A stretch of 64,000 bases of DNA from Treponemataceae bacterium. GTDB taxonomy: Bacteria; Spirochaetota; Spirochaetia; Treponematales; Rectinemataceae. Below the pieces are notes generated by a model. That model worked only from the letters and a program-made list of their open reading frames with translations. It had not been told where the DNA came from and did no database searches. The stretch lies in assembly GCA_963677895.2 (NCBI GenBank), contig CAXXGJ010000018.1, positions 224,001 to 288,000 on the forward strand. Reading direction: 5' to 3'. Positions 55,194 through 64,000 of this stretch are shown here, piece by piece (position 1 is the first letter of the stretch; every line of letters starts with the position of its first letter). The position numbers were made by a program, and so were the translations under genes.

Positions 55194-56078
55194 ATGCGAG
55201 TCATCCCTTATCTGCTCGATGGGCTCTCCCCGCTCGACCATATGTCCATCGAGAATGTACTCCTCGAAACCTGGGGAAGGCCCGAAGGTTTGCTTCTTTT
55301 CTACATAAATGGACCGTCGGTCATCATAGGGCGCAATCAGAATCCCTGGCGCGAGGCCGCTCCCGGTACCGGTCTTCCTCTGTACAGGCGCGCCTCCGGG
55401 GGAGGCGCCGTGTATCACGACGAGGGCAACCTCAACTGGGCGCTGATCGTGCCTCGCCTCATGCATTCCCAGGACGCGGAGCTGGCCATGGTGGCCGCCG
55501 CGCTTTCCGCCCAGGGAGTCGACGCGGTGCCGGGACCGCGCGGCGGCCTCTACTGCGGCCCCACTTCGCCTCACGAGAACAAGAAATTGTCAGGCACGGC
55601 CAGGCGCTTCGGTACCCGGAACGTGCTCCACCACGGGACGCTCCTCGTCCATGCCGACATGGCCAGACTCCACGCGAGCCTCGGCGGAATCCAGACCTTC
55701 AATGATCGATCGCTGCCTTCGGTACCAGCCGCGCCGCTCAACCTGTCTACCCTGGACCCATCGATTCAGATGGAACCCCTCATCGAAGCGCTCTCCAGAC
55801 AAATCGCCGGTGTTCCCCCTCGGCCTCTCCCCGCAGCCTTCGCCGACCCCCTACGCATGGAGAAGGAGACGACGAGACTTGCGTCGGACGAGTGGATTTA
55901 TCATGCCACGGCGCCGTTTTCCGTCCTCCTGGAGGGCGGAGAAAACGCCGCGTCCGCCCGCATCGAAAAAGGCCTCGTAGCGGCGATTTCCGGATCCGGC
56001 GTCGACGGCTCCTATCTTGGCCGGCCTTTTTCATATTCACTCCTCGAGGCAATGATGGAGCTAATTCGCTCGCGGTAA
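55194..56078 (+). CDS. lplA: Lipoate-protein ligase A family (short C-terminal domain)
   Basis: IGRNQNPW.E, RR.SGGGAVYHD.GN.N, KLSG and HHGTLL motifs. Confidence 0.88.
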   Translation: MRVIPYLLDGLSPLDHMSIENVLLETWGRPEGLLLFYINGPSVIIGRNQNPWREAAPGTGLPLYRRASGGGAVYHDEGNLNWALIVPRLMHSQDAELAMVAAALSAQGVDAVPGPRGGLYCGPTSPHENKKLSGTARRFGTRNVLHHGTLLVHADMARLHASLGGIQTFNDRSLPSVPAAPLNLSTLDPSIQMEPLIEALSRQIAGVPPRPLPAAFADPLRMEKETTRLASDEWIYHATAPFSVLLEGGENAASARIEKGLVAAISGSGVDGSYLGRPFSYSLLEAMMELIRSR

Positions 56079-56138
56079 AGAATTCCGCGGCTTTGCCGAT
56101 GGATCTGTCGCTAAAGCCCGCTTGTATCGATTATTTTC

Positions 56139-56167
56139 TTGACATGCAGGCGAGGCTCACCTATAAT
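56139..56167 (+). promoter_or_regulatory. Perfect-consensus sigma70 promoter
   Basis: TTGACA (56139-56144), 17 bp, TATAAT (56162-56167). Confidence 0.85.
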
Positions 56168-56247
56168 TATCCCTCATATCTATATAAAAAGCGCAATTTT
56201 TGCCTCCGCATAGATTTCGCAACCAAGAAATGAGCGAGAAAAGATAA

Positions 56248-57150
56248 TTGAGTACAAAAAGTGTGGGTTTCTATAAACGGCTCATTCTCATCATCGTTGC
56301 CGCGGTTTTAGTACTGCCCATCGTAGCCTGTGTGATTTTGGGCATCCAAAACATTGGGATGAGAAAAAAGATCAAAGCGGCGACGTCTCCCCCCGATGAC
56401 ATCGTGACCGTTGGCGCCACCCAGCTCGAACCCGCTGGAATCGCGCGCGACAAGCCTGTCCTCAGCTATCAAATTCTCTATCCGGATTTCAACACTAATT
56501 TTTACGGCTTCAAGGAAGACCTCGTCGGCGATAAAACCGTTTTTCTCACCTTCGACGACGGTCCCTCCACCGGAACGGACGAGCTGCTCGAAGTGCTCAG
56601 AAAGCATGAAATCAAGGCCACCTTTTTCGTGAACGGAAAATCGAACCGGGTGCTGACCGATAAACTGAAACATATCGCCAACGAAGGGCACGCGATAGGG
56701 ATGCACAGTTATTCGCATCGGTACAACGTCATCTATAAAAACATGGAAAATTTCCTCGACGATTTCTACCGTAATTATCTGTATATCAAAGCAGAGACAG
56801 GTAAAGCGCCGGAAATTCTCAGGTTTCCGGGCGGAAGCATCAATATTTTCAACATCTCCACCTATCAATCCGTCGTAGCCGAGGTTTTAAGACGAGGATT
56901 TATATACTATGATTGGAATGTGAGCGCGGGCGACGCGATAGGGGGAGCCACAACCCAGAGCATCATCGACAACGTGATCAATGGGGTGCGTCTTTGCTGG
57001 GGACCAGCCATTGTGCTTATGCATGACAACGGAAAACCGGCATTGATCAACGCGTTGAGTACAATCATTGAAACGCTGGCGAACGAGGGGTATGAGTTCA
57101 GGATCCTCGATAATTCTATCAAGCCCCCAATGTTCATATATCCGGATTGA
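56248..57150 (+). CDS. Membrane-anchored polysaccharide (peptidoglycan) deacetylase, CE4/NodB family
   Basis: N-terminal TM; TFDDGP, HSYSH, RFPGG, DWN and LMHD motifs; TTG start. Confidence 0.92.
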   Translation: MSTKSVGFYKRLILIIVAAVLVLPIVACVILGIQNIGMRKKIKAATSPPDDIVTVGATQLEPAGIARDKPVLSYQILYPDFNTNFYGFKEDLVGDKTVFLTFDDGPSTGTDELLEVLRKHEIKATFFVNGKSNRVLTDKLKHIANEGHAIGMHSYSHRYNVIYKNMENFLDDFYRNYLYIKAETGKAPEILRFPGGSINIFNISTYQSVVAEVLRRGFIYYDWNVSAGDAIGGATTQSIIDNVINGVRLCWGPAIVLMHDNGKPALINALSTIIETLANEGYEFRILDNSIKPPMFIYPD

Positions 57151-57180
57151 CGAGCGTATCCTTACGCAGGGAGAGAAACG

Positions 57181-57816
57181 ATGAAAATGCAAGGTAATTT
57201 CCTAAAGGCCGTTGACGAGCTGATGAACGGAAAATTCTCGGGGATCAAGACGGACCTTAAGGAAGTCAACAGTCCGGGAGAACCTGAAACCGACCTCGAA
57301 CCTGGTCCGGCCGCGTCCGCGGATTATAAATTTAGCGAAAAGGCTCAACCGGACTTCACAGTGAGCCTCGGGACTTCGGTGCGGCGTATCGACGGCGGAA
57401 GCGTCGAGGCCGTCATCACCGGCGATATGACGGTTAAAGGGAACATCAATTCCACGGCCAATATTTCGATTTCCGGAACGATACTCGGCGATGTAAGCAG
57501 CGAAGGCGACGTCGTCGTGAAGGGCAAGGTAGAAGGAAACATCACCGTCCATTCCCTGTCGGTCGAGGGCGGGAATATCTCGGGGGATATAGTCTCTTCC
57601 GGGGTTGTCACCGTCGCCGACGGCTCATCTATCGACGGCAACATCAAGGCCGAACGGATTGAGGTGAACGGCCGGATAATCGGCAACCTGGACTCCGCCA
57701 CGAAGATAATACTCCACCCAAAATCGGTGATTGAAGGCAATATAACGGCTCTGGAACTTTCCATGACAGAAGGCGCCGAGCTTAAGGGCGCCATGAACGT
57801 CCATAAAAAGTCCTGA
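57181..57816 (+). CDS. Bactofilin (polymer-forming cytoskeletal protein, extended beta-helix)
   Basis: Repeated V/I-x-G-N/D-I hexad pattern across the C-terminal ~135 aa, ending GAELKG. Confidence 0.85.
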   Translation: MKMQGNFLKAVDELMNGKFSGIKTDLKEVNSPGEPETDLEPGPAASADYKFSEKAQPDFTVSLGTSVRRIDGGSVEAVITGDMTVKGNINSTANISISGTILGDVSSEGDVVVKGKVEGNITVHSLSVEGGNISGDIVSSGVVTVADGSSIDGNIKAERIEVNGRIIGNLDSATKIILHPKSVIEGNITALELSMTEGAELKGAMNVHKKS

Positions 57817-57829
57817 AGAGATTTTTCTT

Positions 57830-58618
57830 ATGGAAATAAGCCGCTATGAACGCCCGAAAACCATGGATGAAGCGTATTCCCTGATCGTCGAACAGCGGGG
57901 ATTGCCCGTCGCGGGCGGCGCATGGACCCACCTGACCATGAAGAAGACAGCCCTGGCCGTCGATCTGTCGGGTCTGGAGCTGCGTTACATCCGCGATGCC
58001 GGCGATGCTATGGAAATCGGGGCGATGACGACGGCGCGCGATCTGGAGACTTCTTCGCTGCTCGCGGCCGAGTTTGGGAATATCTTCAGCGAGGCTACCA
58101 GCCATATCGTGGGCGTGCAGCTCCGGAACGTGATTTCGGTCGGAGGCAGCGTGGCGGGAAAATTCGGCTTTTCCGATCTCGTCACGGTTCTGACGGCGAT
58201 GAACGCGTCGCTTCGCTTTTATGGCGGAGCGATGGCGGATATATCCGGATTCCTCGCGGCGTCCAAGGAAGGCCCTTTTCTTCTGGAAAAGATCGTCGTG
58301 AAGAAGGGCGCGAAGGCGGCCTTCCAAAGTCTGCGCGTCACGAAAAATGATTTCGCCGTACTGAATGCCTGCGCCGCTTTTGCCGATGGCGGCTGGCGAA
58401 TCGCCGTGGGGGCGCGGCCCGCGGCCTCCCGGCTCAGTCCCGCGGCGGCTGACGTTCTCGGGCGGGAAGGGACCCCGACCGTGGAGGCCGCGGGCCGCGC
58501 CGGCGATGCCGCGGCGGCGGAGCTCTCCTTTGGCGACGATACGCGGGGCAGCGCCGAATACAGGCGCGCCGTCTGCGCCGTTCTCGTGAAACGGGCCGTC
58601 ATGGAGGCCTCCCGATGA
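57830..58618 (+). CDS. Xanthine dehydrogenase family FAD-binding subunit
   Basis: Y.RP.T..EA, AGG, IGAM.T, QLRN..SVGG and DD.RGSAEYR motifs. Confidence 0.9.
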   Translation: MEISRYERPKTMDEAYSLIVEQRGLPVAGGAWTHLTMKKTALAVDLSGLELRYIRDAGDAMEIGAMTTARDLETSSLLAAEFGNIFSEATSHIVGVQLRNVISVGGSVAGKFGFSDLVTVLTAMNASLRFYGGAMADISGFLAASKEGPFLLEKIVVKKGAKAAFQSLRVTKNDFAVLNACAAFADGGWRIAVGARPAASRLSPAAADVLGREGTPTVEAAGRAGDAAAAELSFGDDTRGSAEYRRAVCAVLVKRAVMEASR

Positions 58619-59070
58619 TCATCAACCTGAAGGTGAACGGCAAATCCATCGGCGTGGAATGCAATCCCGGCGATCCCCTGGTCGATGTCCTGCGCGCCGC
58701 CGGCTACACCGAAGTCAAGAAAGGCTGCGGTACGGGCAACTGCGGCCTTTGCACGGTTCTCCTCGACGGAGTGCCCGTACCCTCCTGTTCCGTCTTCGCG
58801 GGCCGCGCGGCCGACCGCGCCATAACGACGATTCGCGGCGTGGAAAGGGAAGCGGCTGAACTCGCGAAGTTCATCACCGCCGAAGGCGCGGAACAATGCG
58901 GTTTCTGTTCTCCAGGCTTCGCCCTCATGGTGCTGGCCATGAAAAAAGAATTGTCTTCCCCCACCGATGCCGAGATAAGGCATTATCTGGCGGGCAACCT
59001 CTGCCGCTGCTCCGGCTACGAAGGGCATCTCCGCGCCGTAAGGAAATACCTGGAGGCCGGCCGTGAGTAG
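58615..59070 (+). CDS. Xanthine dehydrogenase family 2Fe-2S subunit
   Basis: KKGC..G.CG.CTV, QCGFCSPG and GNLCRCSGY motifs. Confidence 0.94.
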   Translation: MIINLKVNGKSIGVECNPGDPLVDVLRAAGYTEVKKGCGTGNCGLCTVLLDGVPVPSCSVFAGRAADRAITTIRGVEREAAELAKFITAEGAEQCGFCSPGFALMVLAMKKELSSPTDAEIRHYLAGNLCRCSGYEGHLRAVRKYLEAGRE

Positions 59071-61393
59071 GAATTTCATCTCCGTCGGACATAACTTCCC
59101 CAAGATCGACGGCCTAGGCCTCGTCACGGGCCGGCCGGCCTATACGGACGATCTCGCTCCCAGGGACGCGCTCGTCGTCAAAATCCTGCGAAGCCCGCAC
59201 GCTTTCGCCAGAATCATCTCCATCGACGCGTCGAAAGCGCTCGCGTTGCCCGGCGTCGCCTGCGTCCTGACATGGAAGGATGTCGGGCGCGTGCCCTATA
59301 CCCGCGCCGGCCAGGGACATCCCGAGCCCAGTCCGCACGATAAATTCATACTGGACGAATATGTGCGCTATGTCGGGGATGAAGTCGCCATCGTCGCGGC
59401 CGAGGACGACGCGACGGCGGAGCGGGCGCTGTCGCTCATCGTTGCGGAGTACGAGATTCTCGAACCGGTCCTGGATTTCGAGAACGCGGCCGACAATCCT
59501 ATCGTCATTCATCCCGAACCCGAAATACACGAAATGTTCCCCATCGGTTTCAAGCCGAGGCGCAATATCGCGGCCGCTTACGACATGAAAATCGGCGATG
59601 TCGAAAAAGAGCTTGCCAAGAGCGATATCGTGCTGCAGAAGGCATTTTACACGCAGGCCCAGTCCCATGTCGCCATGGAACCGCATGTCGCCTTCAGCTA
59701 TCTCGATATCCACGGCAGGCTGAATATCTGCACGAGCACGCAGAATCCCTTCCATACGCGGCGCATCCTCGGCCAGGCGCTTTCAATGCCCCTCTCCCGG
59801 ATCAGGGTGATGAAGCCGAGGATCGGCGGAGGTTTCGGCGGAAAGCAGCATATCCACGTCGAGCCCTTCGTCGCGCTTGTCACCTTGAGGACCGGCCGCG
59901 CCGCGCGCATCGCCTTAAGCCGCAGGGAAGTGTTCGAAGCCACCTTCTGCCGGCATCAGATGCGCATAAGCATGCGTATCGGAGCCGACAAGGATGGTTC
60001 GCTCAACGTAGTCGACATGAACGTGCTCTCCAACACGGGCGCGTACGGGGAACACGCGTTGACCGTCTTCATGGTGGGGGGCTCCAAGACTTTGCCGCTC
60101 TACAACAAGACGAAAGCCGTGCACTACGGCGGAAAGGTCGTGTACACCAACAAGGTTTCCTCGGGCGCTTTCCGCGGTTACGGCGCCATCCAGGGGAATT
60201 TCGCCCTCGAGTCGATGATGGATGAACTGGCGCACGCGCTGCGGCTGGACCCGGTCGCCCTGCGCGAGAAGAATATGATCCGCGAAGGCGAGACGAGCGA
60301 GGTTTTCCGGATCATGGGCGAGGGAAGCGAAGGCATTGAAATGACGGTCGAGTCCTGCAAGCTCGATTACTGCGTCGCGCGCGGCAAGGAACTGATCGGA
60401 TGGGAGCCCGGAAGTCTGGCGCGGGAAGTGGCGCCTGGCCGGATCAGGGCCAAAGGAATGGCCATAGCGATGCAGGGATCGGGCATTCCGCTCGTCGATA
60501 TGGGATCGGCGACGCTCGAACTTCAGGACGGAGGATGCTTCAAGCTGCGGGTGGGCGCCACCGACCTGGGCACGGGCAGCGACACGATTCTCGCCCAGAT
60601 AGCCGCGGAAGAACTCGGGATTCCGGTTTCCTCCATCGTCGTGTACGCGTCGGACACGGATCACACTCCTTTCGACGTAGGCGCCTACGCGTCGAGCACC
60701 ACCTATGTGTCGGGCAACGCTGTCCTCTCCGCGGCCAGGAAAATGAAGATTGTCCTGGAGGAAGCGGTTGCGGAACGTTATGCGATAAACAAAGACGAAG
60801 TGATCTTTGACGGCGTCAATTTTCTTAGGAACGACGGGACTGCCCTTGTCGGTTTGGCGGAATTCAGTTTCGATACGCTCTACCACAACGGCGAGCTCAT
60901 GAAGACCTTGACCGCGACGGCTTCCTTCACCGGGGAAAAGTCGCCGCCGCCTTACATGGCCGGTTTCGCCGAAATCGAGGTGGATCTCGAGACAGGGAAA
61001 GTGGATCTTCTGAAGTACGTCGCGGTGGTCGATTGCGGCACGACGATAAATCCCAATCTCGCGCGCATCCAGATGGAGGGGGGACTGCTCCAGGGCATCG
61101 GCATGGCCTTGTTCGAGAATGTCAAATACAGCGGTAAAGGGAAGCTTCTCACGAACAGCCTCATGACCTATACGGTGCCGTCGCGCGAGGATGTCGGCGA
61201 GATAATCGTGGAGTTCGCGGACAGCTACGAACCTTCGGGTCCTTTCGGCGCCAAGTCCGTGGCGGAAATCGGCATCGATACGCCGCCGGCGGCCATCGCC
61301 AACGCTATCCGGAACGCCACCGGTCTTCGTTTTGTCGAAACGCCTTTTACTCCGGAACGCGTGCTGATGGCGCTGAAGGCCGCGGCTAAATAA
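59063..61393 (+). CDS. Xanthine dehydrogenase family molybdopterin-binding subunit
   Basis: MEPH, IGGGFGGK, AFRGYG, GAYASSTT, GGLLQGIG and GPFGAKSVAE motifs. Confidence 0.94.
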   Translation: MSRNFISVGHNFPKIDGLGLVTGRPAYTDDLAPRDALVVKILRSPHAFARIISIDASKALALPGVACVLTWKDVGRVPYTRAGQGHPEPSPHDKFILDEYVRYVGDEVAIVAAEDDATAERALSLIVAEYEILEPVLDFENAADNPIVIHPEPEIHEMFPIGFKPRRNIAAAYDMKIGDVEKELAKSDIVLQKAFYTQAQSHVAMEPHVAFSYLDIHGRLNICTSTQNPFHTRRILGQALSMPLSRIRVMKPRIGGGFGGKQHIHVEPFVALVTLRTGRAARIALSRREVFEATFCRHQMRISMRIGADKDGSLNVVDMNVLSNTGAYGEHALTVFMVGGSKTLPLYNKTKAVHYGGKVVYTNKVSSGAFRGYGAIQGNFALESMMDELAHALRLDPVALREKNMIREGETSEVFRIMGEGSEGIEMTVESCKLDYCVARGKELIGWEPGSLAREVAPGRIRAKGMAIAMQGSGIPLVDMGSATLELQDGGCFKLRVGATDLGTGSDTILAQIAAEELGIPVSSIVVYASDTDHTPFDVGAYASSTTYVSGNAVLSAARKMKIVLEEAVAERYAINKDEVIFDGVNFLRNDGTALVGLAEFSFDTLYHNGELMKTLTATASFTGEKSPPPYMAGFAEIEVDLETGKVDLLKYVAVVDCGTTINPNLARIQMEGGLLQGIGMALFENVKYSGKGKLLTNSLMTYTVPSREDVGEIIVEFADSYEPSGPFGAKSVAEIGIDTPPAAIANAIRNATGLRFVETPFTPERVLMALKAAAK

Positions 61394-61450: not shown

Positions 61451-64000
61451 TCAGCGTTCCGATGGATCGAGGGCGGTTATTCCCGGGAGCGATAGCCGCT
61501 CCAGATATTCGAGGAACGCGCGGGGACCCGAGGAAATATGGAGATTGAGGAAGTCCGGAATATCCGATTGCTTTTCTTCCTCGCTGCATACGATCGTCAG
61601 CGCGCCGCGCCGAATGGCTTTATGCAAGGCGGTCTTGTCGGCGGCGATGTTCCTTTGCGTCCTGTTTCCCCGGCCTGGAATCAGTTCTTCGAGATGAGCC
61701 TGTCCTGACCAGAGAATGGTCTTTGCCCCATCGAGCTTTCGAGCCAGCAGTTCCAGACCCTCCCTGCCGTCCATTTTCCCTTCCATCGTCATGATCAACT
61801 TGTCGGGGTAAGAGACTTTGAACGCGTCCATCATCGCCTGGGCAGCCTGCGGCGCGGAACGGATTGCCTGTTCCTCTCCTTCCGCGTCCAAGCCTTCCAG
61901 GGTGATGATCGCCAAGGAATCGACCCTGGGCAGCAATGCCGCCATGACGCCGAATTGGGCCCTCGTTTCCCTGCCGGCGAAAACGGCGATGAAGGGTCTC
62001 GGTGGATTTTCCAGGAGGGTCTCCAGTATCGCCAGCTCCTTGGCCACCATTGGGCCCGCGAGGCGGTGATCGACGAATTTGGGGACGCCCGTGATGCTCG
62101 CATGGCGCCGATGGCAGACGTTGAACGCGTCGTTGACATACCATCCATCGGAGAGGGCGGCGAGGGAGCGCGAAAAAGCCTCGTCATTGTCCCGCTCGCC
62201 CGTGGCGAAACGAAGATTCTCCAGAAGGTTTACAGCGCCGGGGACAATGTCCTTTTTCGTGATGAGGAGGCCGGATGCGGCCACGCTCGTCTTATGGAAC
62301 ACAAGCGGTTTGCCAAGCTGCTGTCCAAGCGCTTCCGCGATAGGCCCGAGGCTGAAATCGCGGGATATTTCTTCCCTGGTGAGTCGCGCGTCGAGACCGG
62401 CGCCCGGATCGCCGAGATGGGAACAGACAATGGGCGTCCCTCCCTTGGCGAGGATCGATTCCAGCGTCGGTGCGATTTGCCGGATGCGCTGCATGCTGCT
62501 TGTCTTCCCGCGGCGGATCTCCACATTCACGTCCACCCGTACGAGGACGAATCCTCCATTGAAGGAATCCACTTTGCCGAGATCGGCTCTGTGGAGATTC
62601 GTCTCGCGATGGAGGCGGGTCAGTTCGGAATCGATAAGGCTCCTGACGACCTGGGCTGCCCCGGCCGCCGTCGGGCAGCGCCCGACGGCGGCGCTCACCG
62701 TGGCGAGCGGAAGGAAAAACTCGGAAATGGGCGCGATGCCCCGATATACCGCCCCGGTGTTTCCGTCGGCCGTCACGCGTTCCCCCTCGCGCAGGACGGC
62801 ATCACCCGCGGCGTGGAAGATCACCAGGCTTTTTTCATAATCGATTTCCACGTCGTCGCAGCCGACGATGCATGGCTTATTCATGGACATCGCGGTGATG
62901 GCCGCGTGCGACGTCCTCCCCGGGTAGACGGTCACGATGGCGTGAGCGCCGTTCATCACGTCGAAATCCGTGGGTTTCGTGTTGTAGGCGATATAGACGA
63001 CGCTTTCTCTTCTCGCGGTCGCTTCCTTGAGGCGCGCCTCGCTGAGCACGAGGGTTCCCGAAACGACGCCGCCGTTGATCGGCACGCCGACGCTGAGCGG
63101 CGGATTCCATCGCCTCGAGCGGAAATCGGCGCGAGGCAGAGCGGCGTTCGCGTACGCCATCTCGAGCCGATCGATCCTCGACCTGTATTCGGTCAAATCG
63201 ATGATGCTTCGACCGAGAAAGTCCGTATCGGCGACGAGCTGCGCGAAGGCTCCCAGTCTGGCCGCCCTGGCCTGAAGAAAAAAGAGGTCGCCGTTTTCGA
63301 CCGTGAATTCCAGGTCCAAATCCTGCCGGTAATGTTCGATGAGCAGCTTTTTCGCGCGTTCCAGTTTTTCGCCGATTTTAGGATCAAGCCTGGATATGGG
63401 TTCCGTATTGGCGCTTCCCATGACCACTTCCTCGCCCTGGGCCATCCTCTTGAATTCCCCAAAAAGCTCGTCGTCCCCGGTGATGGGGTTCCGCGTGATC
63501 AGTACGCCGCTCAGGGATTTCTGGTTCAGGTTCCCGAAAGCCAGTTGCTGGACCGTCACCGCCGTCTCGGCATTGACGTTGGCCGCCAGCGTTCGGGAAT
63601 AGGCGTTCACCGCCCTGGATCTTCTCGATCCATAGACAAGCCCGACGCAGCGCAGAAGCTGTTCCTCCGGATCGATGAGGAAACGTTGGCCGAGCGCCTC
63701 CGCCAGACGCGCCTCCATCGCCTCAACCGCGCTTTCCTCTTCTTTTCCTGCCTGGCCGGCGCCCGCATCGCCGTCCAATTCCGTATCGCCATCAATGCCT
63801 TCATCGCTGTCCAAACCTGACATAAGATCCAAAGCCGACAGGCAGTTTTCCAGAAAACGGCGATAGAGCGAGGCGGTGAGATGGACGCCCCTCCGCTTCT
63901 CCATATGAACGCGTACATCGGGGCTCCATCCAACATTGAGGATAGTCGCCATGACTCCGGGCATGGAAGTGGGAGCGCCCGAACGGACCGATACGAGCAG
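61451..64000 (-). CDS. PPDK-like dikinase (ATP-grasp + phosphohistidine domain) fused to a phosphoglycerate kinase-like module; 5' end outside window
   Basis: Frame open to 64000 (LLVSVRSGAPTSMPG); TRNP.TG, AQGE.VV, DLEFT, LQAR; GRTSHAA; then RVDVNV, SHLG, LLENLRF, YVNDAF..CHR.HAS, PPRPF, LEYLE..LPGI.AL. Confidence 0.88.
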   Translation of the reverse strand: MLVSVRSGAPTSMPGVMATILNVGWSPDVRVHMEKRRGVHLTASLYRRFLENCLSALDLMSGLDSDEGIDGDTELDGDAGAGQAGKEEESAVEAMEARLAEALGQRFLIDPEEQLLRCVGLVYGSRRSRAVNAYSRTLAANVNAETAVTVQQLAFGNLNQKSLSGVLITRNPITGDDELFGEFKRMAQGEEVVMGSANTEPISRLDPKIGEKLERAKKLLIEHYRQDLDLEFTVENGDLFFLQARAARLGAFAQLVADTDFLGRSIIDLTEYRSRIDRLEMAYANAALPRADFRSRRWNPPLSVGVPINGGVVSGTLVLSEARLKEATARRESVVYIAYNTKPTDFDVMNGAHAIVTVYPGRTSHAAITAMSMNKPCIVGCDDVEIDYEKSLVIFHAAGDAVLREGERVTADGNTGAVYRGIAPISEFFLPLATVSAAVGRCPTAAGAAQVVRSLIDSELTRLHRETNLHRADLGKVDSFNGGFVLVRVDVNVEIRRGKTSSMQRIRQIAPTLESILAKGGTPIVCSHLGDPGAGLDARLTREEISRDFSLGPIAEALGQQLGKPLVFHKTSVAASGLLITKKDIVPGAVNLLENLRFATGERDNDEAFSRSLAALSDGWYVNDAFNVCHRRHASITGVPKFVDHRLAGPMVAKELAILETLLENPPRPFIAVFAGRETRAQFGVMAALLPRVDSLAIITLEGLDAEGEEQAIRSAPQAAQAMMDAFKVSYPDKLIMTMEGKMDGREGLELLARKLDGAKTILWSGQAHLEELIPGRGNRTQRNIAADKTALHKAIRRGALTIVCSEEEKQSDIPDFLNLHISSGPRAFLEYLERLSLPGITALDPSER

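Follow-up and report, generated by a model that had tools for sequence, protein, structure and literature searches.

What does a pyruvate, phosphate dikinase (PPDK) do once the place of its phosphoenolpyruvate (PEP) barrel is taken by a phosphoglycerate kinase (PGK)? The question is raised by one gene of a Treponemataceae bacterium, which runs off the end of a 64,000-nucleotide stretch of contig CAXXGJ010000018.1 (hereafter the window; G000:C18:224001-288000, assembly GCA_963677895.2, with 39 contigs, 92.8% completeness and 5.5% contamination). In the window a single open frame of 849 aa extends on the minus strand from position 61451 to the window end, where its 5' end is open, and the adjoining stretch L003 supplies the upstream part of the gene. 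The maximal frame joined from both stretches has 1480 codons, and residue numbers (H996, R1228 and so on) are positions in this 1480-aa frame. The full gene occupies L003:2451-6623 on the minus strand (~1,390 aa), with ~1.6 kb lying past the window end. Its probable start is a GTG at L003:6621-6623, since a divergent M24 peptidase gene begins at L003:6681 and the sequences of homologues set in only at about residue 91-101; a protein 99% identical to the fusion protein (P0002) is 1389 aa long. From the N to the C terminus the product comprises a helical domain (the N-domain), a PPDK-type ATP-grasp domain, a phospho-histidine swivel domain and a two-lobed PGK module. The reading that we prefer, at a probability of about 0.4, is that ATP loads the catalytic residue H996 and that the phosphate is exchanged with a ligand of the 3-phosphoglycerate (3-PG) type in the N-lobe of the PGK module.

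The module assignment was obtained from profile searches and from structure models. On the window frame Pfam recognised PGK (E 6e-54), PEP-utilizers (9e-18) and PPDK_N (9e-14), the PGK match scoring 182-184 bits against a gathering cut-off of 27 and being confined to positions 6-212 of a 379-position profile. On the full 1480-aa frame, no match was found at E up to 1 to the PEP-utilizers_C barrel (PF02896), nor to any further Pfam domain upstream of the ATP-grasp domain. The first-pass annotation, a motif-based note on this DNA made without the 5' end of the gene, had left room for a PEP-binding barrel further upstream; what the neighbouring stretch supplied is a helical domain of 460 aa. The top NCBIfam model for the fusion protein is the PPDK model TIGR01828 (267 bits, below its curated equivalog cut-off of 843), and the dikinase half matches positions 7-508 of that profile with 329 bits, aligns by phmmer with residues 14-510 of PPDK 5jvn (E 4e-68) and superposes as a structure model on chain residues 6-530 of PPDK 1dik (Z 31.9), the swivel domain aligning with the PPDK central domain. 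Residue ~530 of the PPDK chain is about where the PEP barrel begins; in the model of residues 551-1480 (pLDDT 81.9) the PGK fold occupies the spot of the PEP/pyruvate barrel, PGK residue 1 aligning from model residue 548-552. Compared with PPDK (EC 2.7.9.1; TIGR01828; PDB 1dik, 1kbl, 5jvn), the fusion protein keeps the ATP-grasp domain with its nucleotide-site motifs and the T-S-H domain; it has no PEP/pyruvate TIM barrel, carries the additional N-domain and PGK module, and reads PGR in the loop where PPDK reads GGM.

Conservation was followed in an alignment of 49 full-length family members, which are 40-73% identical. The ATP-grasp motifs GGKGN, SVRSG, SMPG, TRNP, QGE, LEFTVE and LQAR are invariant in all 49 sequences, and so is the segment from P991 to I999 in the loop YPGRTSHAAI, where the catalytic H996 sits together with T994 and S995. 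The dikinase motifs first read in the gene (SVRSG, SMPG, TVQQ, DLEFT, LQAR and PGRTSH) were all recovered as quoted, and the catalytic His codon maps to 62906-62908 as claimed. In all fused members (49/49 and 43/43) the phospho-His loop is [YF]PGRTSH, while it reads GGxTSH in 9/9 PGK-less sister proteins carrying the motif and in 68/68 TSHAA motifs of loci L084-L158, nearly all of which are ordinary PPDKs. This change, a single lineage event, gives a weak hint that the His domain may have adapted to a partner arriving with PGK.

The PGK module matches the whole two-lobed fold of PGK 4dg5 (Z 34.2, root-mean-square deviation 2.8 A, 337 residues). Within its N-lobe, D1121, N1123, H1159, R1173, R1228, R1262, H1264 and S1266 are invariant in the 49 sequences, and R1136 is present in 42 of them, the window protein included. 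We take D1121/N1123, R1136, H1159, R1228 and R1262 to be the equivalents of the 3-PG-binding residues DxN, R38, H62, R122 and R170 of PGK. The invariant Arg R1173 (in SREE) lies in an insertion after SHLGDP. The position of R65 is Asp in the fusion PGK, and likewise in the housekeeping PGK of this genome, which also reads SHLGDP; the earlier idea that HLGD in place of HLGR hints at another substrate was discarded on this ground. All the nucleotide and catalytic motifs of PGK, namely the GGAK Lys, the GGG helix, WNGPxGxFE, GGGD and STGGGA, are gone in the window protein, although its structure model keeps the C-lobe relic within the two-lobed fold. The C-terminal helix corresponds in alignments to the end of PGK, where this helix packs back against the N-lobe; H1452, S1454, G1456, R1466, L1469, P1470 and G1471 are invariant in the 49 sequences, and the within-clade identity is 0.78. 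Again, the initial motif readings hold throughout, both for what is kept (RVDVNV, MQRI, SHLGDP, ENLRF, HRRHAS) and for what is lost (AGRE for GGAK, WSGQ for WNGP, SSGPRA for STGGGA, and no GGGD). The module thus shares with PGK (EC 2.7.2.3; PF00162; PDB 4dg5, 1vpe) the two-lobed fold, the 3-PG ligands and the C-terminal helix, and differs from it by the lost nucleotide motifs, the short C-lobe, the replacement of the catalytic Lys by Glu, its position behind a dikinase and its status as a paralogue of a housekeeping PGK.

The chimera first noticed in this one gene recurs in other genomes. The PGK region, used as a query, retrieved 57 clusters, all of them PPDK_N + PEP-utilizers + PGK proteins, mostly of 1300-1450 aa and with identities from 99% down to 33%, and a one-genome-per-species scan gave 67 loci with the fusion. 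Their sources are Spirochaetota (Treponemataceae, Rectinema), Riflebacteria/Ozemobacteraceae, Elusimicrobia, Wallbacteria and a few other metagenome-assembled genomes (MAGs). In Logan, one contig that possibly comes from the source sample (X1) spans the whole stretch, and the junction between the His domain and PGK is bridged by contigs of three other studies: X3 (61451-63439, 0 differences), X4 (62253-64000, 8 differences) and X10 (62445-62796, 13 differences). An assembly chimera of two genes is ruled out by these clusters, loci and junction-bridging contigs.

In order to compare the PGK modules within the family, those of 47 family open reading frames (ORFs) were aligned to this genome's own PGK, L070 being left out of the motif counts as frameshifted and unalignable. 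Two subfamilies were apparent. Every motif (GGSKISxK, VGGGIGYTL, WNGPIGAFE, GGDS, STGGGASLEF) is kept in 26 of the 47 rows, all non-spirochaete, and the canonical PGK nucleotide site is found in members from Elusimicrobia, Riflebacteria and Wallbacteria, while all the nucleotide motifs are lost in 19/19 spirochaete rows, among them the window gene. At the former catalytic-Lys position these 19 rows all have E or D, and a uniformly acidic residue at this site is, on the alignment, not random decay. One further row, L069 from a MAG labelled 'Myxococcia', reads GGNK, VGGSLACTM, WSGSLGRYE and STGGSAFLEF; its half-eroded site may represent a transitional state, or the same decay may have set in there independently.

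Domain identities were computed leaving out L070, L054, L026 and L014, with L069, L067, L019 and L021 placed in neither clade. For the spirochaete and the other clade, respectively, they amount to 0.61 and 0.70 in the helical N-domain, 0.54 and 0.70 in the ATP-grasp domain, 0.73 and 0.77 in the His domain, and 0.57 and 0.77 in the PGK N-lobe. The PGK C-lobe, with an identity of 0.33 and a length of 119-160 in the spirochaete clade, is the best-conserved domain of the other clade (0.83), where its length is fixed at 182; the N-lobe of the spirochaete clade is constrained like its ATP-grasp domain. The non-eroded fused module is ~50% identical to ordinary stand-alone PGKs, and a separate PGK was found in 5/5 tested genomes that carry the full-PGK fusion. 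The possibility that the fused PGK is the cell's only PGK was ruled out by these separate copies and by the one in the present genome. Since the PGK nucleotide site is intact in the other clade and the domain identities agree, the spirochaete form is derived, its nucleotide lobe having decayed while its 3-PG lobe stayed constrained.

The fusion protein is a member of the swivelling-histidine phosphotransferase superfamily (PPDK and PEP synthase, PEPS), and the mechanism that we propose would begin as in PPDK. The ATP-grasp domain would phosphorylate H996 from ATP, inorganic phosphate (Pi) entering the reaction and AMP and pyrophosphate (PPi) leaving it. The swivel domain would then shuttle the phosphoryl group between H996 and a 3-PG-type ligand in the PGK N-lobe, whose carboxylate would accept or donate it; the Mg2+ that otherwise comes with the nucleotide may be bound by the conserved acid in place of the catalytic Lys. 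Overall, this would amount to ATP + Pi + 3-PG <-> AMP + PPi + 1,3-bisphosphoglycerate (1,3-BPG). By our own estimate from textbook hydrolysis energies this reaction is near equilibrium, and either direction is therefore possible; succinyl-CoA synthetase provides a chemical precedent for transfer from phospho-His to an acyl phosphate. In spirochaetes, PGK's own ATP site being gone, the phospho-His is therefore the only evident partner of the 3-PG site. The exchange is favoured, too, by the acid in place of the catalytic Lys and by the loop change that accompanied the arrival of PGK. That the family catalyses precisely this reaction, for which no enzyme is known, through a phospho-His docking on the PGK N-lobe is, in our view, less likely than not. 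In the full-PGK subfamily, bound phosphoglycerate could relay phosphate between phospho-His and ADP, for a net AMP + PPi <-> ADP + Pi.

The first-pass annotation had suggested that a His shuttle may stand in for the ATP site of PGK. What survives of this proposal is the genuine chimera, with its invariant ATP-grasp and TSH motifs, its kept 3-PG ligands and its lost nucleotide motifs; what tempers it is the ATP site left intact in 26/47 rows, and the N-domain as a possible rival acceptor. Several observations weigh against our preferred reading. The intact nucleotide site in these 26 rows implies that the fusion did not arise by replacing PGK's ATP site, and the ancestral fusion would therefore have used an ADP/ATP-competent PGK. 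The R38 equivalent is Ser in 7/49 members and in 4/19 spirochaete rows. The N-domain may be the true or ancestral third site, and so a rival acceptor, and a module fused to the C terminus of an ancestor of that kind would end up behind the His domain regardless of what it does. The genome keeps both a canonical PGK (beside the gap gene, on contig C38) and a complete PPDK (1270 bits). No conserved neighbour ties the fusion gene to glycolysis: ORF clustering of 54 loci gave no neighbour cluster present in more than 12 loci, and the 71 immediate neighbours scanned with Pfam have diverse functions. Finally, the spread of the fusion is patchy, with 6/24 other genomes of the same family carrying it, 0/16 genomes from other families of the order, and 0/400 genomes in an even phylum sample whose bases were incompletely covered.

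The N-domain is all-helical in its model (460 aa, pLDDT 87.5). It has no match in Pfam (E up to 1) or NCBIfam (E up to 0.01), and its model has no Foldseek match in the PDB at E 1e-3 or better. A wide structure search (VIA) gave at best Z 10.6, to four-helix bundles of ~95 residues and within the level stated for helical models, and a protein atlas look-up returned low scores only (0.79-0.84). A word-based search for shorter N-domain proteins yielded 19 matches, all at least 44% identical to the fusion protein, which we read as fragments of the fusion family. With an N-domain profile, 38 proteins were retrieved from 1.84 billion representatives, 12 being remote relatives of 694-1150 aa and the rest family members or fragments. 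Behind the N-domain these relatives carry PPDK_N in 12/12 cases, the PEP-utilizers His domain in 9/12 and PGK in 0/12. Such PGK-less proteins (P0094, P0096, P0103 and others) thus begin with a helical domain homologous to the N-domain (profile E 1e-13 to 7e-4) and continue with ATP-grasp and His domains; they differ from the fusion protein in that the full-length ones stop just after the His domain, without a PGK module and with the GGxTSH loop; in their source annotation they are PEP-utilizing enzymes from Desulfobacterales or Planctomycetota MAGs.

A set of polar residues is common to the N-domain of the fusion protein and that of its sisters (R203, R227, H231, S235, D374, N390, G419, E456 and R500, the glycine G419 counted with them), with R500 and G419 present in 12/12 sisters and R203, R227, H231, S235, N390 and E456 in 9/12. 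Together, these shared residues resemble a ligand site. The most parsimonious ancestor would have consisted of N-domain, ATP-grasp and His domain, PGK being added later at the C terminus. In a metagenome scan, P0096 matched mostly ordinary PPDKs, the only true sisters being L080-L083. In L081, the sole well-flanked sister locus, the PGK-less gene is divergent from a complete canonical PPDK gene (PPDK_N, mobile domain and PEP-utilizers_C); this is a single case.

These sisters bear on an alternative that we consider a serious contender, short of an even chance. Here N-domain, ATP-grasp and His domain would form the catalytic core, the phospho-His serving an N-domain substrate or, as in VadK, a separate target protein, and the PGK module would be an accessory sensor or a relic: a working PGK paralogue in other phyla and, in spirochaetes, a pseudo-enzyme that has kept its affinity for 3-PG or 1,3-BPG and senses the glycolytic state. 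The existence of PGK-less proteins of 900-1150 aa with N-domain, PPDK_N and PEP-utilizers favours it, as do the polar constellation common to N-domains with and without PGK, the place of the N-domain among the best-conserved parts of both clades and the intact ATP site of the other subfamily. Besides, a lost nucleotide site next to a kept ligand site is the pattern expected of a sensor, and a solitary gene with a patchy distribution is what one might expect of an accessory regulator. The fusion protein also scores 223 bits on NF004531 (cut-off 456), which we take to be the model of truncated VadK-type PPDKs, and has two further domains. According to passages of PMC13400623, the truncated PPDK VadK (Rv1127c) autophosphorylates on its catalytic His, and a role as a regulatory histidine kinase is reported for it. 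Like the fusion protein it combines the PPDK ATP-grasp and His domains without the PEP domain; unlike it, VadK measures ~490 aa and has neither the helical N-domain nor a PGK module. However, a pure sensor needs no invariant acid at the old catalytic-Lys position (19/19), and it leaves unexplained why the phospho-His loop changes with the presence of PGK. The PGK of the other clade, fully catalytic by its sequence, exceeds what a sensor needs, and the N-domain resembles no known fold or family from which an acceptor role could be read.

Quite unlikely, by comparison, is a decaying fusion in which the spirochaete PGK part is heading for loss and serves as scaffold only, with no ligand-related function. 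The shortened and length-variable C-lobe, its low identity within the clade and the disappearance of all nucleotide motifs are in line with such a fate, but the ligand residues of the N-lobe, like the C-terminal helix, stay invariant across 49 sequences as divergent as 40-73% identity, the frame is intact in 19 spirochaete rows, and the N-lobe is conserved like the ATP-grasp domain. It is hardly credible that the protein is an ordinary ADP-dependent PGK merely fused to a dikinase: what would be plausible for the non-spirochaete subfamily, given its ~50% identity to housekeeping PGKs and its full set of motifs, does not suit a window protein devoid of GGAK, GGG helix, WNGPxGxFE, GGGD and STGGGA, and matched by Pfam over profile positions 6-212 only.

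Rifampin phosphotransferase (RPH), glucan water dikinase, PEP synthase and PigC/RedH all combine an ATP-grasp domain, a mobile His domain and a dedicated acceptor domain. In glycolysis, PPi-linked alternatives exist for two steps, those of phosphofructokinase and pyruvate kinase. The fusion protein gives weak, partial matches to the swapped-acceptor dikinases (RPH 15 bits, PigC 21 bits, PEPS 62 bits; the RPH value refers to the rifamycin phosphotransferase model NF041857, whose cut-off is 999), and none of these enzymes uses a PGK module. Multidomain PGKs, some of them catalytically dead, are described in passages of PMC7729029 (PGK-TIM, PAS-PGK and PGKL); there, one dead PGK has lost its 3-PG residues, exactly those that the fusion protein keeps, and the same passages describe no PGK-dikinase fusion. 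Neither a fusion of dikinase and PGK nor a PPi-linked PGK was found described in a full-text literature search or in these passages. The novelty is the union of a known phosphotransfer machine with an unprecedented PGK partner module and a further helical domain.

If the protein is a phosphoglycerate dikinase, it would bring a new reaction into central carbon metabolism and change the energy-yield estimates of the anaerobes that carry it. At the position of PGK these would then have either a glycolytic step that saves energy through its link to PPi and AMP, or a gluconeogenic step with a strong drive. Should the protein instead be a regulator whose pseudo-PGK senses 3-PG, it would represent a new wiring of the glycolytic state into a histidine phosphotransfer switch. 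The natural series of PGK-less, full-PGK and eroded-PGK proteins shows the recruitment and remodelling of a kinase domain.

Coordinates of the fusion gene modules and of other genes mentioned in the text (window positions unless a locus or contig is named).
Feature	Coordinates	Strand	Residues	Remarks
Stop codon and PGK C-terminal helix	61451..61549	-	1449-1480	HxSxGPRAFLEYLERLSLPGI
PGK nucleotide-binding C-lobe relic	61550..62005	-	1297-1448	Shortened, ATP/ADP motifs gone
PGK N-lobe, 3-PG ligands kept	62006..62602	-	1098-1296	Pfam PGK
Linker helices, His domain to PGK module	62603..62725	-	1057-1097	Structure alignments; lowest conservation of all segments, identity 0.38
Phospho-histidine swivel domain	62726..63106	-	930-1056	Pfam PEP-utilizers
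PPDK-type ATP-grasp domain, part in window	63107..64000	-	632-929	TIGR01828
Rest of ATP-grasp domain and helical N-domain	L003:5244-6623	-	551-631 and 91-550	Past window end
2Fe-2S and molybdopterin subunit genes	58615-61393	+		Xanthine-dehydrogenase/aldehyde-oxidase family; molybdopterin subunit 776 aa
Stand-alone PGK, linked to the gap gene	G000:C38:400249-401459 (L004:1474-2592)	- (in L004)		Frame-split near C-terminus
Stand-alone PGK, further copy	G000:C35:15686-16832 (L005)			Frame-split mid-gene
PGK-less sister gene	L081:4828-7701	-
Canonical PPDK beside the sister gene	L081:7971-11273	+
MFS transporter copies	L023:14012-15250, L024:7265-8536, L030:6972-8255, L041:6767-8020, L043:13944-15221			L043 record labelled Erysipelotrichia

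Both stand-alone PGK genes of the genome are frame-split, and the copy on contig C35 lies in GC-richer DNA beside a second GAPDH gene and may be contamination. Among the neighbours of the fusion loci, one MFS transporter cluster stands directly downstream of the fusion gene in three spirochaete and two Riflebacteria-type loci, and no specific NCBIfam transporter family was matched by it. In the present genome the fusion gene is flanked by the M24 peptidase gene and by a molybdenum enzyme of the xanthine-dehydrogenase type, for which no link to the fusion gene was seen in the other loci. The two molybdenum-enzyme genes converge on the fusion gene and end 58 bases from its stop codon. The GC content climbs from ~0.48 to ~0.63 across window positions 56000-58000.

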